Shown here: positions 5,120 to 46,179 of the stretch, piece after piece
Layout: each line of letters begins with the position of its first letter
Numbering within the stretch: position 1 is the first letter of the stretch
Source: Bdellovibrionales bacterium
GTDB taxonomy: Bacteria > Bdellovibrionota > UBA1018 > CAIMNF01
Reading direction: 5' to 3'
Length of the DNA stretch: 60,329 nt
Assembly: GCA_040380025.1 (NCBI GenBank)
Contig: JBEIJY010000012.1
Location: forward strand, 1 to 60,329
Translations under genes and position numbers: made by a program
The notes under the pieces: generated by a model
Seen by the model: only the letters and a program-made list of their open reading frames with translations
Told to the model about the DNA's origin: nothing
Database searches by the model: none

Positions 5120-5173
5120 CCGGATGCAAGCTAGCGTAACCACGAAATATCCAACGTTTAAGGAGAGACAGCA

Positions 5174-5422
5174 ATGTCAGCAAACACAGAAGACAGAGTC
5201 CGTTCGATTATCTGCGACCAGCTCGCGGTTGAAGCCGAAAAAGTGAAGCCTGCGGCTTCGTTCATCGAAGACCTCGGCGCAGACAGCCTCGACATCGTCG
5301 AGCTCGTGATGACCATGGAAGAAGAGTTCGACATGGACATCCCCGACGAGGAAGCCGAAAAAATGAAGACCGTGGGTGATGTGATCAACTACATCAACGC
5401 CAAGGCCAGCGCGAACCACTGA
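5174..5422 (+). CDS. acpP: Acyl carrier protein
   Basis: [14 protein letters not shown] phosphopantetheine attachment motif. Confidence 0.97.
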
Positions 5423-23532: not shown

Positions 23533-25218
23533 ATGAAGAATCTTGTCGTTTTTGCGGGCATTTTCCTTCCTGCATTGGTTTCATACGCCGCCCCCGAAGA
23601 TCGCGCCATCGTGCTCTCGGGCGGGCTTGATCCGTTTGAAAACCGCAATTCGCTGTATCTGCAAACCCAGATGATTCTCGAGACCCTGCATGGCCGCATG
23701 AGCCCCGGGCAGATCGATCTTTTTTTCGGTGCCGGAAACTCCCCATCCACCCGAAACCTGATCCCCGACGTTCATCGGTTCAGCACCCGTTCGCGGCTGG
23801 ATTTCGTCGATGAGCTGGTCCCGGGAATCCTGCCCGACAATCGCGCGGCGGACTCTCCGACTCTCGAGGAGTATTTTCATTCCGAACTTCCGAACAAAAT
23901 GAATCCGAAGGGAAATCTCTTTTTTCTCGTCTCGGATCATGGAATGCCGAATCCGTTCCTGCGCGAAAACGAGGCGTCCTACTCGAACAACTGCATCGTG
24001 CTCTGGAACGGGATGCCCGGTGCCGATGCCCAACCTCGAAATCCTTGCCTATCGGTGACCGACCTGAAATCCCGTCTGGAACTTGCGAATGCGAAGCGAA
24101 CGGTGTTCGCAATGACCCAGTGTTATTCGGGCGGATTCCACGGCATGTCGGTCCGCCGGGACGAAGAGAACCATTGGACTGCAAACCCGAAGGTCTGCGG
24201 ATTCACCGCGACCACCGAGGATGAAGTCTCGAATGGATGCTCGATGGAGGTCGACTCGCTCAAATACATCGGGTACGAGCGACGCATCACCGAGGCGCTC
24301 ACCGGGTTCGACATGGCAACCGGAGCCGCACTGGCACCGGCTGCGCGCTCTCTTTTGAGTGCCCACCGCAGAGCGGCCGAAATCGACACGAATTACGATA
24401 TCCCGCTCACCACGAGCGACGTGTTCCTCCGGAACTGGGCGCAGGACATCGAAACCCGCGGATTCAAGCCCAGAGCGGGCCGGGGGGCGAAAGCGCGCAG
24501 GGATTTCATCGAGGTGGCCGAAGGGAGAATCTCTCACGAAAAAATCCTGGCCTCGTCGAAATGGCTCAGGGCCTGGTTTGAAGCGAAATTCAATCACCTC
24601 GCGCGCATGGCGGCCACGGTCGGCGAGACCTCCGAGACGGTGAAGCGTCTTTGGGATCAGCCCCTCTCGCTCCTCAGGAAGTCCATCGATGAAATGAATT
24701 CCGAAATTGCTTCGAAACAAAAGGAACTTGCGACGATTCAGGAACAAATTGATGTTCTGAACCAGGGAACACTCCATCCGGCCTACTTGGATCATCTGAA
24801 TGCAAGAGCGCTTGAGCCGACGTTTTTACAGAATCCCGCGAACATGTACCACTACCAAATCGCGCTCACGCCCGATCTTTATCAGTCCCAGATGTACATC
24901 CTGAGCAAAGCGCAATCGCCGCTCGCCCTGATCCTGGCCGAGCAAATGCGCTCCTACGGCGAAGTTTCCCGAGACATCCTCCTCGGGTTGCGGAATGGAA
25001 CCTATCGCGACGAGGTTGGACTCCGGGATGAGTTGTACAAAAAAGAAGAGTCCGTTCAGGCTGATATTTGGGAACTCCAACGCGAACGAAACCTCCTGCG
25101 CCGGTTTCAGATCCAGCGCGAGGCACTCGCCGCAGCCCATGCGATCGTCCGAATGAACGACAAAAAAGCCCTCTCCGATTTGCAGGGCTTGCTCGAGTGC
25201 GAGGCGACTCCGTTTTAG
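23533..25218 (+). CDS. Secreted clan CD (caspase/C13-like) peptidase with C-terminal coiled coil, paralogue B
   Basis: FLVSDHG and MTQCYSGGF; collinear with paralogue A; same C-terminus DLQGLLECEATPF. Confidence 0.72.
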   Translation: MKNLVVFAGIFLPALVSYAAPEDRAIVLSGGLDPFENRNSLYLQTQMILETLHGRMSPGQIDLFFGAGNSPSTRNLIPDVHRFSTRSRLDFVDELVPGILPDNRAADSPTLEEYFHSELPNKMNPKGNLFFLVSDHGMPNPFLRENEASYSNNCIVLWNGMPGADAQPRNPCLSVTDLKSRLELANAKRTVFAMTQCYSGGFHGMSVRRDEENHWTANPKVCGFTATTEDEVSNGCSMEVDSLKYIGYERRITEALTGFDMATGAALAPAARSLLSAHRRAAEIDTNYDIPLTTSDVFLRNWAQDIETRGFKPRAGRGAKARRDFIEVAEGRISHEKILASSKWLRAWFEAKFNHLARMAATVGETSETVKRLWDQPLSLLRKSIDEMNSEIASKQKELATIQEQIDVLNQGTLHPAYLDHLNARALEPTFLQNPANMYHYQIALTPDLYQSQMYILSKAQSPLALILAEQMRSYGEVSRDILLGLRNGTYRDEVGLRDELYKKEESVQADIWELQRERNLLRRFQIQREALAAAHAIVRMNDKKALSDLQGLLECEATPF

Positions 25219-39969: not shown

Positions 39970-40664
39970 ACCCACCCTATCGGATCTTGTTCGAGGATCA
40001 GCATCTTGCGGTCCTCTCGAAAGACCCGGGGCTTCTCTCGCAAGGAGATGCCTCCGGTGATCCCTCACTGGTCGATCTTTTGCGGACCCGCTTCGGGCGA
40101 CAATATGTCGGGCTCGTGCATCGTCTTGATCGCAACACGAGCGGCCTCATGGTCGTCGCGAAACGCTCGAAAAGCGCGGAGCGACTCACGAACCAACTGC
40201 AATCGGGCGAGCTCGAACGTCGCTACCATGCGATTCTTTTCGGCTCATTTGAATCGAATGAGCCCCGACGCTGGGAACACCTGATGCTGAAGAACCTGAA
40301 CACGAATGAGGTCCGGATCGTGACCCGTCCGGTCCCGGGCGCGAAGATCGCAATTCTCGAGATGACTCCGGTTCTCGGGTTCCCGCATCCTTCGACGGGG
40401 GATCTCCTGACTCTTGCCCGATTCACGCTCGAGACCGGGCGATCCCATCAGATCCGCGCCCAGGCGCTGGCGATGAATCATCCCCTGATCGGCGATCAAA
40501 AGTACGGCACGCCGAAAAGCGCGGGCCTCTTCCACCGTCCCGCCCTGCATTCGTGTTTTCTTTCGTTCTCGCATCCGATGTCGAAGGAACGACTCGAGTT
40601 CTCGGAGAATCTCGCCCCCGACATGGAAGAGCTTCTGCCCGCATCCCGAAGGAGCCTTGATTGA
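39948..40664 (+). CDS. RluA-family pseudouridine synthase
   Basis: HRLDRNTSG, TGRSHQIR, GDQKYG. Confidence 0.92.
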   Translation: MAHSDPLNPPYRILFEDQHLAVLSKDPGLLSQGDASGDPSLVDLLRTRFGRQYVGLVHRLDRNTSGLMVVAKRSKSAERLTNQLQSGELERRYHAILFGSFESNEPRRWEHLMLKNLNTNEVRIVTRPVPGAKIAILEMTPVLGFPHPSTGDLLTLARFTLETGRSHQIRAQALAMNHPLIGDQKYGTPKSAGLFHRPALHSCFLSFSHPMSKERLEFSENLAPDMEELLPASRRSLD

Positions 40665-42994
40665 AAGTCGTCCGCCTTGAATTTCGCGACGAGCGCACCC
40701 CGTATTCGCCGCTCTTCGAAGATGTGTATTTTTCGCCCGTCTCGGGGATCGAAGAATCGAATGAAGTTTACATCGAAGGAAGCGGCTTCGCCGAGTCGCT
40801 CGCCTCGGGGAAACCCCGCATCACGGTTGCGGAGATCGGGTTCGGTGTCGGGCTCAATTTTGTTCTGACCGTGCGCCACTTCCAAACTGCCCTCTTTGAT
40901 TGTGCAGGGTTAGGGAGTGCGACCGGCAGAAGGGATTGGAAGGATTCGGCTTTTGCCTCCGAGCCGGATCGTCCGGCCTCGCTCTCGCCGTCCTGGCTCG
41001 CGAGAGTCGGCAAAAACCGAATCCTTCCAATCCCTTCTGCCGGTCCCGTGCCATTACCCTGCACAATCAAAGAGGGCAGTTTGGGAGCCTCCACGAACAG
41101 TCCGGTTCTTGAGTATATCTCGTTCGAAAAGCATCCGGTCCATCGGGACGATCTCGTGCGCCTCTATTCGGCCTACCCGGAACTCGCGCGTTCATCGAGC
41201 GCGCTCTTGCAAGCCTATCCTTTGCTGGTTCCCGGGGTGCATTCCATCCGGCTCTTTGACGGCCGGGTGCGTCTCACGCTTGTCTTGGGTGATGCGGCTG
41301 CGATGCTCGGAAAAATGCAATTCCAGGCTGATCACTGGTACTGGGACGGATTCGCCCCGAGCCGGAATCCGGACGCGTTCTCGGACGAGATCTTCACCGA
41401 GGTTGCGCGCCATTCCAAAAAGGAGGCGCGGGGATCGAGCTTCACTTCTGCGGGCTGGGTCCGGCGGGCGCTCGAGTCGGCCGGATTCCAGGTCACCAAG
41501 GTTCCAGGCTACGGAAGAAAACGCGAGCGCCTGACGGGGGTTTTCGCGGCCGCCCCACGAACCTCCCCCAAACTGCCCCATTTGATTGTGCAGGGTAATG
41601 AAACGGGATCGGCCGAGAGCGGCGAAATGATTCCGCTTTTACCCTCGGGTCGGGGCTCTAGGACTCGCGCTCACCAATCGGGGTCGCGAGAATCCGAAAA
41701 ATCCGAATCCCTCCCATCCCTTCTGCCGATCGCGCCCCCTAACTCTGCACAATCAAATGGGGCAGTTTGGAGTTTGCAGGGACTGAGCCCTCCCCCGTGG
41801 TTCTCGCAAAAAAATCATTCGCGCCTGTCGCCCGACCGGAACCGTGTCGCCATCATCGGCGCGGGCCTCGCCGGCTCCGCGGTCGCACGATCCCTTGCCG
41901 GACGGGGTGCGGTGGTGCGCGTGTTCGATGCACATGGAATCGCCACCCGTGCTTCGGGAAATCCCGCAGGGCTGTTCAACACGCAAATCTCAAAACTTCC
42001 GAATCCGATCAGCCGGTTCGCACAGGCGTCGCTTGCGCATTTCTTGCGCGAGCTGGACTCGCTTCGCGTTCCGGCACGGCGCGGAATCCTGAGAAAGGAC
42101 TTCTCCGACCCGGCGCCCCTGATTGCTTCGGAGTATCCGGAGGATTTCTACGAGCTCCGCGAAAATGGCACGTTTTTCGGACTCGCGGGAATGCTGAATC
42201 CGGCAGAACTATGCCGCGCGCGGCTTGATCACCCGGGAATCTCCCTGCAAGCCGATGCGGTGATCCGGGTCGAACGAGAAGGCGAAGAATTCTCGCTCCA
42301 TCATCCGTCGGGAGCAGTTTCTCGCGGGTTCCATCACGTCGTGTACACCATGGGCGCGGATCCGCGCCTTCCGGGAAGCGCCCCTCTTCTGCATCCCCTT
42401 CTGGACGCCCTTCCAACGCGTCCGATTCGCGGACAGATCTTGCTATTGCGGCCCACGCCCGAATCAGCGCGCCTCCCGCATTGCCTGGTCGAAGAGGGGT
42501 ATCTGACGCCGCTCGCACCGGAAATCACGAAGAATGAGTTTCACCTTTTGGGCGCAACCTATCAGGCAAAGACGATTCTTCCGGATCAGGAAGAGATCGA
42601 CACGGCCCGACTGCTCGAAGACGCCGGGAAGTGGCCTGAGATCGGGAAGTTCACGCGCGATCATGTGGTCTCGACGCGGACAGGCTACCGGATGTCGACC
42701 CCCGACAAGCTCCCTTTGATCGGCCCCGTGGTGGATCCGGCATGGCTCAGGGACGCGTACCAGAGGACTCTGCGGGGCGCTCGGCAGATCGCGGGTCCCG
42801 ATCTGGAGCCCGAGCCGGGCGAGTGGATGCTCACGGGTCTTGGATCGCGGGGAATCACCTACTCGTCGTACGGCGCGGAGATTCTGGCCTCGATGATGAC
42901 AGGAGAGATGCCGCCGATCGAGCTGGATCTCCTTGAGCATGTTCATTCGGCGCGGTTTTTCGTGCGAAAACTTCGCGATGTTACGATAAAGTGA
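40661..42994 (+). CDS. mnmC: Bifunctional tRNA mnm5s2U biosynthesis protein MnmC, carrying two in-frame hairpin-element insertions
   Basis: FEDVYFS, EIGFGVGLNF, SFEKHP, DGFAPSRNP, IIGAGLAG, ASGNPAG, GLGSRG. Confidence 0.9.
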   Translation: MKVVRLEFRDERTPYSPLFEDVYFSPVSGIEESNEVYIEGSGFAESLASGKPRITVAEIGFGVGLNFVLTVRHFQTALFDCAGLGSATGRRDWKDSAFASEPDRPASLSPSWLARVGKNRILPIPSAGPVPLPCTIKEGSLGASTNSPVLEYISFEKHPVHRDDLVRLYSAYPELARSSSALLQAYPLLVPGVHSIRLFDGRVRLTLVLGDAAAMLGKMQFQADHWYWDGFAPSRNPDAFSDEIFTEVARHSKKEARGSSFTSAGWVRRALESAGFQVTKVPGYGRKRERLTGVFAAAPRTSPKLPHLIVQGNETGSAESGEMIPLLPSGRGSRTRAHQSGSRESEKSESLPSLLPIAPPNSAQSNGAVWSLQGLSPPPWFSQKNHSRLSPDRNRVAIIGAGLAGSAVARSLAGRGAVVRVFDAHGIATRASGNPAGLFNTQISKLPNPISRFAQASLAHFLRELDSLRVPARRGILRKDFSDPAPLIASEYPEDFYELRENGTFFGLAGMLNPAELCRARLDHPGISLQADAVIRVEREGEEFSLHHPSGAVSRGFHHVVYTMGADPRLPGSAPLLHPLLDALPTRPIRGQILLLRPTPESARLPHCLVEEGYLTPLAPEITKNEFHLLGATYQAKTILPDQEEIDTARLLEDAGKWPEIGKFTRDHVVSTRTGYRMSTPDKLPLIGPVVDPAWLRDAYQRTLRGARQIAGPDLEPEPGEWMLTGLGSRGITYSSYGAEILASMMTGEMPPIELDLLEHVHSARFFVRKLRDVTIK
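40884..41082. repeat. Hairpin element copy E5 (199 bp), in frame in mnmC
   Basis: Perfect TIR AAACTGCCCTCTTTGATTGTGCAGGGT / ACCCTGCACAATCAAAGAGGGCAGTTT; 37-bp inner arms; intact core. Confidence 0.97.
41570..41768. repeat. Hairpin element copy E6 (199 bp), in frame in the mnmC interdomain linker
   Basis: Perfect TIR AAACTGCCCCATTTGATTGTGCAG / CTGCACAATCAAATGGGGCAGTTT; degenerate arms and core. Confidence 0.93.
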
Positions 42995-43812
42995 CACCCA
43001 TGCGATCGATCAGCGCCCTCCTCATCGTGAAAAATGAAGCCTGCTATATCGAGCGCGCTCTTTTGTCGCTCCTTTGGTGCGATGAGATCGTGGTGGTCGA
43101 TGCGTTCAGCACGGATGAAACGCCGGCCATTTGTGGCGACCCCGCGAAACCCTGGGCGAAGAAAATCCGATTCCTACAAAAAGAGTGGATGGGATTCTCG
43201 GCCCAGCGGAATTTCGCGATCAGCCAGGCACGAAGCCCATGGGTTTTCTTTCTGGACGGAGATGAGGCCTGCTCGCCGGAGCTCGCAGAGCGCATCCAGT
43301 CGCTCTTGAAGAGTCCCGATCTGACTCCCGGACAGTACAAAGTCCGGCGGCAGGAGTTTTTTCTGAAGAAACCGATTCATCATGGAATCTGGAATCCGTC
43401 CTATCATGTGCGTTTGTTTTATCGGGATCATCTGCGCTTCACCGGCGAAGTCCACGAGGGGGTCGAGTGCGCGGACGAAGTGAGAAGGATCGACGAGCCG
43501 ATCATTCATGTGGAGGATCTGAGAATTGAGCGGATCCTGAACAAGATGAACCACTATACGACGATCCAGGCGGAAGCGGATTACAAAAGCGGCCTCAGGA
43601 CGAATCTGCTCCGGATCCTGCTCTCATTCCCGGCAATGTTTTATAAGAACTATGTGTATTACGGGGCCTGGAGGGACGGGACCGAGGGAGTGATGATCTC
43701 GGTGTTGGAGGGGGTCTCGAGAACCGTGCGCCATCTCAAGATCTGGCAACTCTCCCAAACTGCCCGCTTTGATTGTGCAAAATTAGACTCCAGTAAAAAA
43801 AATTCTCTCTAA
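42991..43812 (+). CDS. Glycosyltransferase family 2; last ~18 codons come from element E7
   Basis: LIVKNE, VVVDAFSTDET, FLDGDE, GEVHE. Confidence 0.9.
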   Translation: MTPMRSISALLIVKNEACYIERALLSLLWCDEIVVVDAFSTDETPAICGDPAKPWAKKIRFLQKEWMGFSAQRNFAISQARSPWVFFLDGDEACSPELAERIQSLLKSPDLTPGQYKVRRQEFFLKKPIHHGIWNPSYHVRLFYRDHLRFTGEVHEGVECADEVRRIDEPIIHVEDLRIERILNKMNHYTTIQAEADYKSGLRTNLLRILLSFPAMFYKNYVYYGAWRDGTEGVMISVLEGVSRTVRHLKIWQLSQTARFDCAKLDSSKKNSL

Positions 43813-43944
43813 ATTGCAAAAGCTTGCATCAAGACATTCTTAGGCCCTGGGCACGGCGATTTTCATCTGTCACTCGGTTACAGCGAATCCTCCGGCATAT
43901 GAATCCTGTTTTCGAAAACCATGCACAACCAAACAGGGCAGTTT
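43757..43944. repeat. TIR-bounded element E7 (188 bp, no core), upstream of the transposase
   Basis: CTCCCAAACTGCCCGCTTTGATTGTGCA ... TGCACAACCAAACAGGGCAGTTTG. Confidence 0.88.
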
Positions 43945-43977
43945 GCAGTTGGCACAGTCTCTGCCTTCTCCCCCCGC

Positions 43978-44901
43978 ATGCGAATCCAGTGTCCGAATCC
44001 ATTGTGCCCTAAAATCCATCCCTGTGCCCATATCCCCCGTCGCCGTGGTCCGAAACCCAGACCGATCGTCCGAAAAGGAAGCTACTACCGTTTCTCGGAC
44101 CGCAGGTTCATCGATCGCTATCAATGCCGATGTTGCGGAAAGAATTTTTCGAGCGCCACCCGATCTCCCGATTACCGAAAAAAGAAGCGGCACCTGAATT
44201 CCGAGATCTTCAATCTCTATTGCTCGGGAGTGAGCCAAAGAAGGATGGCGCATTTGCTCGAAACCACCGAAAGGACCATCGTCGACAAGTTCCGTCTGCT
44301 CGCGAAGAGAGCCAGGCAAGAACACGAGGAATGGCTCAAGGGCATCGAGCCGAATTCCATCAGGAGTGTCCAATTCGATGACCTCGAAACCTTCGAACAC
44401 ACGAAGTGCAAACCCCTGAGCGTGACCCTCATGGTGAAGAGCCAAACCCGTGAGATTCTCGGATTCCAAGTTTCGCAAATGCCGGCAAAGGGACCACTCT
44501 CGAAGATTTCTCTTCGAAAATACGGTCCGAGAAAAGACAAGCGGCATGAGGGATGGAACCGATTCTTCAAAAATCTCGAGCGGATTCTTCACCCCGAGGT
44601 CCTGATTGAATCAGACGAGAATCCCCATTACCCAAAGCATGTGAAACGGTATCTGCCCGAAGCCAGGCATACGCGGTATCAGGGAGCACGGGGAGCGATC
44701 ACGGGTCAGGGAGAGCTGAAGAAGATCGGCTTTGATCCGCTGTTCGCCCTGAATCACACCTGTGCGATGTTGCGGGCAAACATGAACCGCCTTTTTCGCA
44801 GGACGTGGTGCACGACGAAGACAGTCGAAGGGCTTGTGGATCATCTCTCGCTCTATGTGCGGTACCACAACACGCTAATCCTCCCAAACTGCCCGTCTTG
44901 A
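43978..44901 (+). mobile_element. IS1-family-like transposase (Zn ribbon, HTH, RNase H-like DD[E->N] domain)
   Basis: CPNPLC...RYQCRCCGKNF; GVSQRRMAHLLETTERTI helix-turn-helix; QFDDLE, ESDENPHY, LNHTCAMLRANMNRLFRRTWCTTK (compare IS1 InsB [24 protein letters not shown]). Confidence 0.75.
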
Positions 44902-45071
44902 TTGTGCATGAATAGAGACTTCCCATTTTTTTTCGCATGAAATTCCCAACAATTAACCCATTTTTCTGATTCGCCCGGATCGGCTCTGGAATCGCTCCCT
45001 GATTTCGGGCCAAATCAACGGGCGAAACGCCAATTCCGCCTAAAACCATGCACAATCAAAACGGGCAGTTT
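44886..45071. repeat. TIR-bounded element E8 (186 bp, no core), downstream of the transposase and supplying its stop codon
   Basis: CTCCCAAACTGCCCGTCTTGATTGTGCATG ... CATGCACAATCAAAACGGGCAGTTT. Confidence 0.9.
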
Positions 45072-45180
45072 CCGATTGTTAAATTTTCTTGACATTTATA
45101 CCCCCCTCCCCCAAAACTTGCCCCATCACGCTTTTGGTCCACTGACGGCACCAAGATCGATCACGGAGGAAGAGAGACCC

Positions 45181-46179
45181 ATGAGAACCATTTTCATCGT
45201 CCTGGTGGTTCTGATTTTGATCGGGGGGGGAGTCTGGTTGCTTAGGCCCGCGCAGATGGGGCCGGGAGTGCAGGTTCCCGCAGCAAAAACAACGGCGGTG
45301 GAAGACTCCACAATCGTAGATGCTTCGCAGCCAAACCCGGGTGATGACAATCCCGTACAAAATCCGAACCTCCCTACTCCCACCGCCGAGAGCCAAGCAT
45401 CGAAGCCCCGCGTCGGCGTCTGCCACCCGCAAACTGCCTCAGATGATTGTGCACCATTAACGACCGGAATGACGCCAACACCTCGGAATCATTCTATTTC
45501 TAATGCAAAGCCCGGACGTTCGGAATTAGCCTCCCCATCCGGGCTCGCAAACGAGGACAAAACCCGAATCATTCCGGCTCTGTCTGTTCATGGTCTTCCT
45601 AAACCAGGAACAATCAAAGAAGGCAGTTTGTGCTGGGTACGCGAGTACCGCCACAAGGCAAACTCCCGCGCCCTTCCCATCGACGAGTTCCTCGAGCACC
45701 TGAACGCCTTCCCTCTCGAGCGCCCCGACATCCAGCCAAAGAGCATTTGTGTGAAGGTGGACGGCACTCCCGTCGACTTTGTGGTTTCGAGCCGGGGGCA
45801 AAAAAAAGAGATCGTCATCGGACCCGTGGTGGGACCAGAGAGCATCATCCGCGTCTCGTACTGCACCGGAAGCGCGCGGTGCGGAGAAGCCTGCGCGAAA
45901 CCCGCACGACGGTTCATGGATGAGCTGACCGGCGATGTTCTCACACCACCACACGGCCCGACAGGCCGTGCAGACTCACCTGCCCCGACAGGCCGTGCGG
46001 CCGCAAACAGCCCCAGAACCCCGGCTCTCTCCCACCACGAAGCCGACACGGCCGAGCTCCGCGCGGGCCTGAACGAGCTGAAGGCCCTCGCCCGAACCAA
46101 TGATTCCCTCACCGATCACGCAATTCTGCGGGATTGGAACACCCTCGTCGCGCGCGAGCGCACCTGCAAGGAGAACTGA
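45181..46179 (+). CDS. Membrane-anchored hypothetical protein at the head of the gliding-type operon, with in-frame element E9
   Basis: ATG at 45181 (MRTIFIVLVVLILIGGG TM anchor); Cys-containing C-terminal domain. Confidence 0.75.
   Translation: MRTIFIVLVVLILIGGGVWLLRPAQMGPGVQVPAAKTTAVEDSTIVDASQPNPGDDNPVQNPNLPTPTAESQASKPRVGVCHPQTASDDCAPLTTGMTPTPRNHSISNAKPGRSELASPSGLANEDKTRIIPALSVHGLPKPGTIKEGSLCWVREYRHKANSRALPIDEFLEHLNAFPLERPDIQPKSICVKVDGTPVDFVVSSRGQKKEIVIGPVVGPESIIRVSYCTGSARCGEACAKPARRFMDELTGDVLTPPHGPTGRADSPAPTGRAAANSPRTPALSHHEADTAELRAGLNELKALARTNDSLTDHAILRDWNTLVARERTCKEN
45431..45629. repeat. Hairpin element copy E9 (199 bp, degenerate), in frame
   Basis: AAACTGCCTCAGATGATTGTGC ... AACAATCAAAGAAGGCAGTTTG; translates QTA...TIKEGSL, like E5. 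Confidence 0.85.

Follow-up and report, generated by a model that had tools for sequence, protein, structure and literature searches.

The contig analysed here, a stretch of 60,329 nucleotides from a Bdellovibrionales bacterium (assembly GCA_040380025.1, contig JBEIJY010000012.1; hereafter the window), carries a transposase gene bracketed by two short modules, each with its own pair of inverted termini. We interpret the region 43756-45071, with a probability of about 0.6, as a compound element in which the gene lies between two MITEs (miniature inverted-repeat transposable elements), and as a copy of a widespread Bdellovibrionota insertion sequence (IS) family that is distantly related to IS1. 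The locus is an unusual, recurrent arrangement of an ordinary IS with its MITEs, and no new kind of system. The window is the entire contig C12 of a 2.35-Mb genome in 53 contigs; contigs of this source genome are designated by C and a number, loci encoding homologues of the transposase by L and a number, and termini by T. Positions are signed relative to the transposase gene, such that -34 is 34 nt before the start codon and +3 is 3 nt past codon 321.

A single terminus of 23-26 bp, T, occurs four times at 43756-45071, in the order T1> <T2, gene, T3> <T4. T1 (43756-43779, + strand) is the outer end of the left module, E7, and of the whole unit; T2 (43922-43945, - strand) faces the gene, with its outer end 34 nt before the ATG, a position at which canonical copies of the family carry internal IS sequence. 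T3 (44885-44910, + strand) faces the gene from the right, with its outer end 3 nt past codon 321, and T4 (45047-45071, - strand) is the right outer end of the unit. Complementarity is 88% within the T1/T2 pair and 96% within T3/T4, and all four copies are of one subtype, TGTGCA. Genome-wide, the terminus pattern gives 44+46 matches versus 0+2 for a reversed control and is therefore present beyond chance. In the window, 15 termini score at least 12 with a position weight matrix; they form six complete pairs and three single termini.

The two modules, E7 (43756-43945, 190 bp) and E8 (44885-45071, 187 bp), are in direct orientation, as seen from the extensions shared beside T1/T3 and beside T2/T4, and they have in common only T plus 12-15 nt on each side. 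Their interiors are unrelated (77 identical columns versus 76.5 +/- 3.5 in shuffles), and each interior occurs once in the genome. No target-site duplication (TSD) was found: the best agreement between flanking 9-mers is 5/9 for E7, 4/9 for E8 and 4/9 for the whole unit. The interior of E7 is not palindromic and lacks the core of the standard MITEs of this genome; folded as single-stranded DNA, E7 reaches -25 kcal/mol (z -3.2), compared with -95 kcal/mol (z -18) for a standard MITE. Both modules match a profile of 26 standard MITEs only across the terminal 28-34 nt. Searches with nhmmer, blastx and blastn returned nothing for the interiors beyond the termini, and on these searches we rejected a decayed MITE core, a transposase remnant or repeated DNA as their source. 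An inside-out IS, with T2/T3 as the true ends and TGCACA outermost, was also rejected, because AAACTG is outermost in the TSD-bearing MITEs and in all canonical copies.

These observations bear on several statements of an initial annotation of this DNA. Its claim that the gene lies not within a single pair of terminal inverted repeats but between two modules with repeats of their own is borne out by the four copies of T, and its description of unrelated module interiors and absent TSDs holds. The transposase is, as stated there, the only one in the window; the genome, however, holds four matches to it. The dispersed copies that it counted as eight do share these termini, but the count for the window is the six pairs and three singles given above.

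The transposase gene (43978-44901, + strand) encodes 307 amino acids comprising a zinc finger (CxxC...CxxC), a helix-turn-helix (HTH) and an RNase-H-like DDE domain. An alternative ATG lies at 43921, and the open reading frame (ORF) ends within T3, which supplies the final five codons and the stop. Pfam gives no significant domain in this protein, and no Pfam IS1 domain. The NCBIfam IS1 model NF033558 matches it over profile positions 20-134 of 199 with an E value of 1.2e-10 and 41.7 bits, short of the curated cut-off of 100; the same model matches 34 of 34 aligned family members, with a best E value of 1.5e-14. Across the alignment of these 34 homologues, the zinc-finger cysteines C5, C10, C50 and C53 are invariant or nearly so, an HTH-like stretch is apparent, and the motifs QFDDLET and SDENPHYP are invariant, as are D134/D135 and D213. 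An AlphaFold model (predicted local distance difference test score 79) contains an RNase-H-like sheet whose first strand carries D134/D135 and whose fourth strand is followed by D213; E246 and N259 are candidates for the third catalytic residue. The best Foldseek matches are the transposase of ISCth4 (IS256 family; E 1.9e-6), retroviral integrases and Mos1. On the basis of the profile and the modelled fold, we predict that the protein is a distant IS1-type DDE transposase, which agrees with the IS1-like DDE-fold enzyme of the initial annotation. Because all 70 invariant columns of the alignment are retained, the window copy does not look as if it were decaying.

Upstream of the gene, a conserved motif, TGGCACAGTCTCTGC (43950-43964, + strand), begins 28 nt before the ATG and has the form TGGY-N8-TGC. 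It occurs at about -28 in 20 of 61 loci (L004-L007, L013-L018 and others) but in none of 61 control windows; TTGA or TTGT takes the place of TTGC in many of the other loci. This conservation suggests that the motif is probably a promoter or control element of the transposase gene. Its spacing presumably resembles that of a sigma-54 -24/-12 promoter.

Homologues of the protein are numerous, and most are encoded by ordinary insertion sequences. At E <= 0.001, a protein database contains 3881 homologues; Pfam recognizes no domain in any of them, and many are encoded on 1.0-1.4-kb contigs. We scanned 63 homologue-encoding loci with a weight matrix built from 91 termini. At 48 of them, the gene is bounded by just one T> (-46 to -100) and one <T (+26 to +154), and these canonical IS copies measure about 0.97-1.12 kb; ten loci are without a flank or a detectable terminus, and five carry a module, with modules on both sides only in the two copies of the source genome. 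A scan of species genomes gave 80 further loci, several of them sharing a genome and many from Bdellovibrionales, Pseudobdellovibrionaceae and Bdellovibrio, of which 59 are canonical by our own count; the sole module types among them, L101 and L168, are apparently the contigs of L003 and L073 again. Matches are found in 15 of 41 related genomes (9 of 16 within the genus), with a maximum of 13 per genome. Identical IS copies occupy different sites (L056, L057, L059), and at L057 and L059 identical ISs have a common left flank and differing right flanks. The closest protein, P0001, is 75% identical and is encoded on a 1336-bp contig; nothing closer than 61-66% to the window protein was found in the metagenome scan and the genome scan. 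Literature searches, supplements aside, returned no description of this IS family. The flanks of canonical copies are inverted-complementary at 6.9 of 14 positions, compared with 6.2 in shuffled pairings; this is barely above the shuffled value, and palindromic target sites were rejected.

One site recurs among the canonical copies. L010, L028, L029 and L030 (genomes G007, G011, G016 and G001) each have a canonical IS with an intact 302-aa ORF directly after the acpP stop codon, and this common site in four species reflects either inheritance through speciation or a strong site preference. The source genome has acpP (window 5165-5422) without the IS. L031 and L032 likewise occupy one common site.

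The four tblastn matches in the source genome are the window gene, a second full-length copy (C5:100094-101068, 61% amino acid identity to the window protein) and two fragments of the C-terminal part, each at the extreme end of its contig, C46:1-333 and C38:18842-19174. The C5 copy has the same layout as the window copy: T lies at -230, -34, +3 and +204 at C5, and at -221, -34, +3 and +188 in the window. At C5, the gene is flanked by two standard MITEs, each complete, which differ from one another and lie in direct orientation. The gene's own repeats are missing from both complete copies in this genome, and the positions at which the outer end of an inward-facing T meets the gene core coincide, the left junction falling just upstream of the TGGY-N8-TGC motif. 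At three loci outside this genome, L003, L073 and L074, a module is present on the left side alone; at L074, the stop codon is directly followed by a degenerate T in forward orientation. The C46 and C38 fragments share 85% DNA identity with the C5 copy; their right end is canonical, with flanks that diverge directly after CAGTT, and both contigs start within the transposase gene at one common base. Over the last 88 codons, C5 and C46 differ at about 14% of nucleotides but, by our own count on the two translations, at only eight residues. Adjoining the C5 copy are two ORFs of 109 and 209 aa (C5:101251-102217), flanked by genes that in three other species are direct neighbours; these small ORFs may have arrived with the C5 copy.

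How often this layout arose can be judged from the tree, which requires at least three changes of layout and hence at least three origins. A single ancient origin of the module type was rejected on these grounds and on the canonical right end of C46 and C38. An in-place inversion of a terminal segment is suggested by L003, in which a hairpin plus T2 spans -91 to -31, the span of the inverted repeat plus hairpin in L002, but was rejected as unfit to explain the complete standard MITEs at C5. Termini also abut at other sites: in L022 a MITE lies 7 bp from an IS end (about 500-600), in L012 an IS end lies 11 bp from the next terminus (about 2520-2545), and on C6 two MITEs lie 6 bp apart (23795-24017 and 24024-24200). 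Head-to-head ends 6-11 bp apart suggest insertion beside an existing terminus, and such abutting ends at L022, L012 and C6 could be precursors of the compound layout.

The dispersed hairpin elements of about 200 bp in this genome are MITEs of this IS family. They are short and non-coding, have inverted repeats of the IS type, are present in multiple copies and include copies with TSDs; E7 and E8 resemble them in their termini only, having unique interiors and no duplication. The weight matrix finds 144 termini genome-wide. We examined 39 paired modules, mostly of 197-204 bp (a 394-bp pair with four mismatches, C2:109189-109582, was left out of the module lists). The termini of MITEs and ISs form one sequence family. 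Among 41 intervals (the 39 modules and the two whole units), a 9-bp TSD is perfect in four, matches at 8/9 in two and at 7/9 in two; shifted controls all stay below 7. Long hairpins are the standard form of the modules; T and a core of about 60 nt are conserved among them, and the stems vary between copies. There are also a few triplets of near-identical MITEs, and these MITEs have therefore moved recently. Mini-modules of 55-95 bp consist of hardly more than both termini (C7:7721-7792, C13:35203-35284, C9:89232-89326 and C42:9804-9858). Of 106 contig ends, 30 have a terminus no more than 260 nt away, so that all these copy numbers are lower bounds; together with the starts of C46 and C38, these contig ends indicate that the assembly breaks here and that the contigs lack at least one canonical, multi-copy IS.

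Repeats and transposase are also associated across genomes and within this one. All six genomes with at least 17 pattern matches, among 41 genomes, carry the transposase, and the 26 genomes without the gene have at most four; the initial annotation's proposal that the protein is tied to the hairpin family is supported by the common termini. Nine of the 13 TGTGCA-type termini of the source genome lie within 5 kb of the window gene (40884-45629), and three more lie within 1 kb on C20 (37251-38283). Around the gene, this subtype includes three 201-bp MITEs, two of them (40883-41083, a hairpin, and 41569-41769) within an mnmC-like ORF and one (45430-45630) within the ORF 45076-46179.

MITEs located inside long ORFs leave the frame open. 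The mnmC-like ORF (40661-42994, Methyltransf_30 plus DAO) is open through both of its elements, and further cases are C9:63632-63830 and C2:114493-114689. In all, six of the 39 modules are in frame with at least 60 open codons on each side, one of them by read-through into the C5 transposase. Thirty modules measure 188-206 bp, and ten of these have a length of exactly 201 bp, a multiple of three, and 201 bp plus a 9-bp duplication makes 210. These ORF-borne MITEs recall the in-frame palindromic elements of Rickettsia.

The unit is located between a glycosyltransferase gene of the GT2 type (42991-43812, + strand; Pfam Glycos_transf_2, E 2.6e-20) and an ExbB/ExbD-type cluster. Homology of the GT2 protein to its orthologues ends after ...KIWQLS, exactly at T1, and its last 19 codons (43756-43812) are encoded by E7, which has therefore replaced the native C-terminal tail found in relatives. 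On the other side, 17 nt separate the end of T4 from a TTGACA (45089-45094) whose presence upstream of the next gene is conserved among relatives, and about 150 bp of GT2 tail and spacer present in relatives are missing at the unit site. A GT2 orthologue is present in 16 of 16 other genomes of the genus; none of the 15 orthologous loci that we fetched has a transposase homologue alongside, and ExbB follows GT2 by about 1 kb in five orthologous loci versus 2.4 kb here. The C5 copy has no counterpart at its locus in 13 of 13 other species. From these comparisons, the insertion at the GT2 site appears to be confined to this lineage. The compared species are distant (their GT2 proteins are 63-78% identical), so a recent domestication or fixation within this species could have escaped this comparison.

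How might such a unit arise and work? A normal member of the family measures about 1.0 kb and has one gene for a transposase of about 300 aa between one T pair, with (C)AAACTG at the outer ends. Missing from the window copy are the gene's own repeats (about 55 bp at the left end, 39 bp at the right), and the gene core, from the -28 motif to the stop codon, is joined directly to the outer ends of two T-bounded modules in direct orientation; in the reading that we favour, the locus is therefore a compound element. Its build resembles a composite transposon (IS1-cargo-IS1, or TIME-COMP) with the cognate transposase as cargo. The protein would bind T through its zinc-finger/HTH part and cut at the AAACTG ends, and any inward-facing T pair would be a substrate: T1+T2 or T3+T4 would move a module, T1+T4 might move the whole 1316-bp unit, and T2+T3 would have the wrong orientation. 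Activity of this copy on T-bounded substrates is a prediction. As for its origin, MITEs may have inserted beside the ends of an ordinary copy, and end-anchored deletions, which are classically known for IS1, may then have removed the IS's own repeats; this last is the least certain step.

Several results weigh against this reading. Neither the whole unit (4/9) nor the C5 unit (2/9) is surrounded by a TSD, which leaves movement in one piece a prediction, and the genome has no second near-identical copy of the unit. E7 and E8, whose interiors are unique and which lack a TSD, are likewise only presumed to be mobile themselves. Among the canonical copies (L002-L077), 46 of 48 are without a direct target duplication of 5 bp or more. 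The junctions recur, at -34, -34 and -32 on the left and at +3 and +3 on the right, in copies that are separated by the tree, and random deletion end-points would not yield such recurring junctions. Finally, C46 and C38 keep a canonical right end despite being 85% identical to C5, and no intermediate with an old repeat beside a nested MITE was found among the examined loci.

Other explanations account for parts of this evidence. The recurrence of one four-terminus layout, with the same junctions, in two copies only 61% identical is what would be expected of an autonomous IS subfamily with compound ends, in which the modules of about 190 bp are designed ends, T1-T4 transposes whole, and solo modules arise by recombination between the direct repeats T1/T3 or T2/T4. 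In agreement with this, both ORFs are intact, the window copy keeps each invariant residue, and the flanking termini of each copy have their own subtype (TGTGCA at C12, TGTGCT/TGTTCC at C5). We nonetheless consider such a subfamily rather unlikely: neither unit has a TSD or a second copy, the modules are non-homologous (standard MITEs with a core at C5, elements without core or palindrome at C12), the fragments nearest to C5 have a canonical right end, and any module is found in only 5 of 63 loci, with both modules only in the source genome. The missing TSD and the unique, non-palindromic interiors of E7 and E8 would also fit an inert relic, that is, an old IS copy stripped of its ends by nearby insertions and deletions, immobile and in a functionless arrangement; the loss of about 150 bp of GT2 tail and intergenic DNA relative to relatives and the long terminal branch of the window copy point the same way. 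A relic would not be expected to keep an intact ORF with all 70 invariant columns and the -28 motif, nor to have 9 of 13 termini of its own subtype clustered within 5 kb, and the few residue changes between C5 and C46 at about 14% nucleotide difference also speak against decay; we therefore regard it as unlikely, and slightly more so. It is hardly credible that the layout was created during metagenome assembly, by a chimeric join across short repeats. The unitig graph does branch at T1 (loose ends at 43756 and 43779), and 30 of 106 contig ends lie close to a terminus; but Logan contigs of the probable source run, a run that is not independent of the window, match the assembled junctions and cover 43300-43785 and 43851-45500 without other letters or joints, the same layout is found on contig C5, and the repeats are only 23-26 bp long. 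Depth in these contigs is 31.6 in the left flank; the contig that spans gene, E8 and right flank has a depth of 25.1, and these values point to a single copy of the gene. Other sequencing runs, X2, X3 and X5, gave nothing but short pieces at low depth that match the gene or GT2 identically over part of their length, and no contig bridges or skips the unit.

The initial annotation had gone further and proposed a domesticated IS1-fold protein that binds, spreads or processes the hairpin family, a RAYT/REPIN-like system with a DDE-fold enzyme that could be undescribed. Spelled out, this would be an immobile enzyme, retained by the host or the repeat population for the sake of the hairpin elements. 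Some features would suit this idea: this gene lineage is single-copy (depth 25.1 versus 31.6 in the flank), its own repeats are lost and cognate repeat modules stand on both sides, its terminal branch is long with an intact ORF, the ratio of termini to genes is by far the highest seen (104 pattern matches per four gene matches), and the MITE population is diverse rather than uniform. Most of what a domesticated single gene predicts is contradicted by the wider comparison, and we hold the idea to be very improbable. Counted genome-wide, there are four transposase matches and 144 termini, not a lone gene; homologues reach 13 copies per genome, 48 of 63 are ordinary ISs, modules flank only 5 of 63, and the locus is without a homologue in 15 of 15 other species, as is the C5 locus in 13 of 13. 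The fold is DDE rather than HUH-tyrosine, the canonical multi-copy relatives C46 and C38 could supply the activity within the same genome, and near-identical MITEs with TSDs indicate ordinary recent transposition. The alternative that the annotation itself had set against its proposal, an ordinary IS plus MITEs, is in spirit what we find, although the whole unit does not occur in many copies.

A narrower idea concerns the end-stripped genes only. In this lineage, IS1-like DDE transposase genes without their own ends, located between complete MITEs, could be long-lived sources, either immobile or mobile as composites, that maintain a diverse population of hairpin MITEs. We think this quite improbable. 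If it were true, the partnership would be an early, convergent DDE counterpart of RAYT/REPIN, and the recurrent -34/+3 junctions would be the trace of a specific and repeatable reaction turning an ordinary IS into this state.

Comparison with known systems places the compound element that we favour closest to IS1. The family shares with IS1 an N-terminal zinc finger plus HTH followed by a DDE domain, an element of about 1 kb with terminal inverted repeats of about 23 bp, and the best family profile for 34 of 34 members; IS1-family target duplications are 8-9 bp, and here 9-bp duplications are present on four MITEs. It differs in that the window protein, at 41.7 bits, stays below the cut-off of 100 and has no Pfam IS1 domain, that one ORF without a frameshift encodes the transposase, that the ends read (C)AAACTG, and that 46 of 48 canonical copies are without a duplication. 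One pair of termini is the rule at 48 of 63 homologue loci; the window copy instead has four, its repeats replaced by two modules. Judged from these sequence features, the nearest family is IS1 in its single-ORF type, which we take to be the subgroup called ISMhu11 in ISfinder.

MITEs with a parent IS are well known, Correia, RUP and MITEAba12 (PMC6382973) being examples, and Tn9 is a composite transposon bounded by two IS1 copies. Like other MITEs with a parent IS, the dispersed elements here have the parent's repeats, are multi-copy, carry TSDs and would be moved in trans; they differ in being long perfect hairpins with varying stems and a conserved core of about 60 nt, and in that several lie inside ORFs. 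The TIME-COMPs (PMC13367494, PMC4133298) are similar in that two short elements in direct orientation bracket a segment whose outer ends could move the whole; here the cargo is instead the cognate transposase gene stripped of its own ends, and no duplication flanks the unit (4/9 here, 2/9 at C5), each unit being present in a single copy. With RAYT/REPIN, as characterized in the sections of Bertels and Rainey (bioRxiv 10.1101/2021.07.10.451892) used for this comparison, the only common feature is a transposase-type gene flanked by dispersed hairpin repeats with matching termini. By that account, RAYTs are HUH enzymes with a catalytic tyrosine (IS200-like) and are encoded by a single-copy gene that is inherited vertically at the same extragenic site, whereas the present enzyme is of the DDE type, its family is multi-copy and patchy with identical copies at different sites, its position is not conserved (0/15, 0/13), and its repeats carry TSDs and have autonomous IS relatives.

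As it stands, the locus is an interesting variant of ordinary IS/MITE biology. The hairpin repeats of this genome are linked to a concrete transposase family and end sequence and thus become testable as MITEs, and a very large IS family that Pfam does not recognize is documented across the Bdellovibrionota. The recurrent layout further points to a repeatable route from a transposase gene with ends of its own to one that has lost them and stands between its own miniature derivatives. If this conversion is a specific reaction, it would bear on the origin of immobile 'servicing' transposases such as RAYTs.

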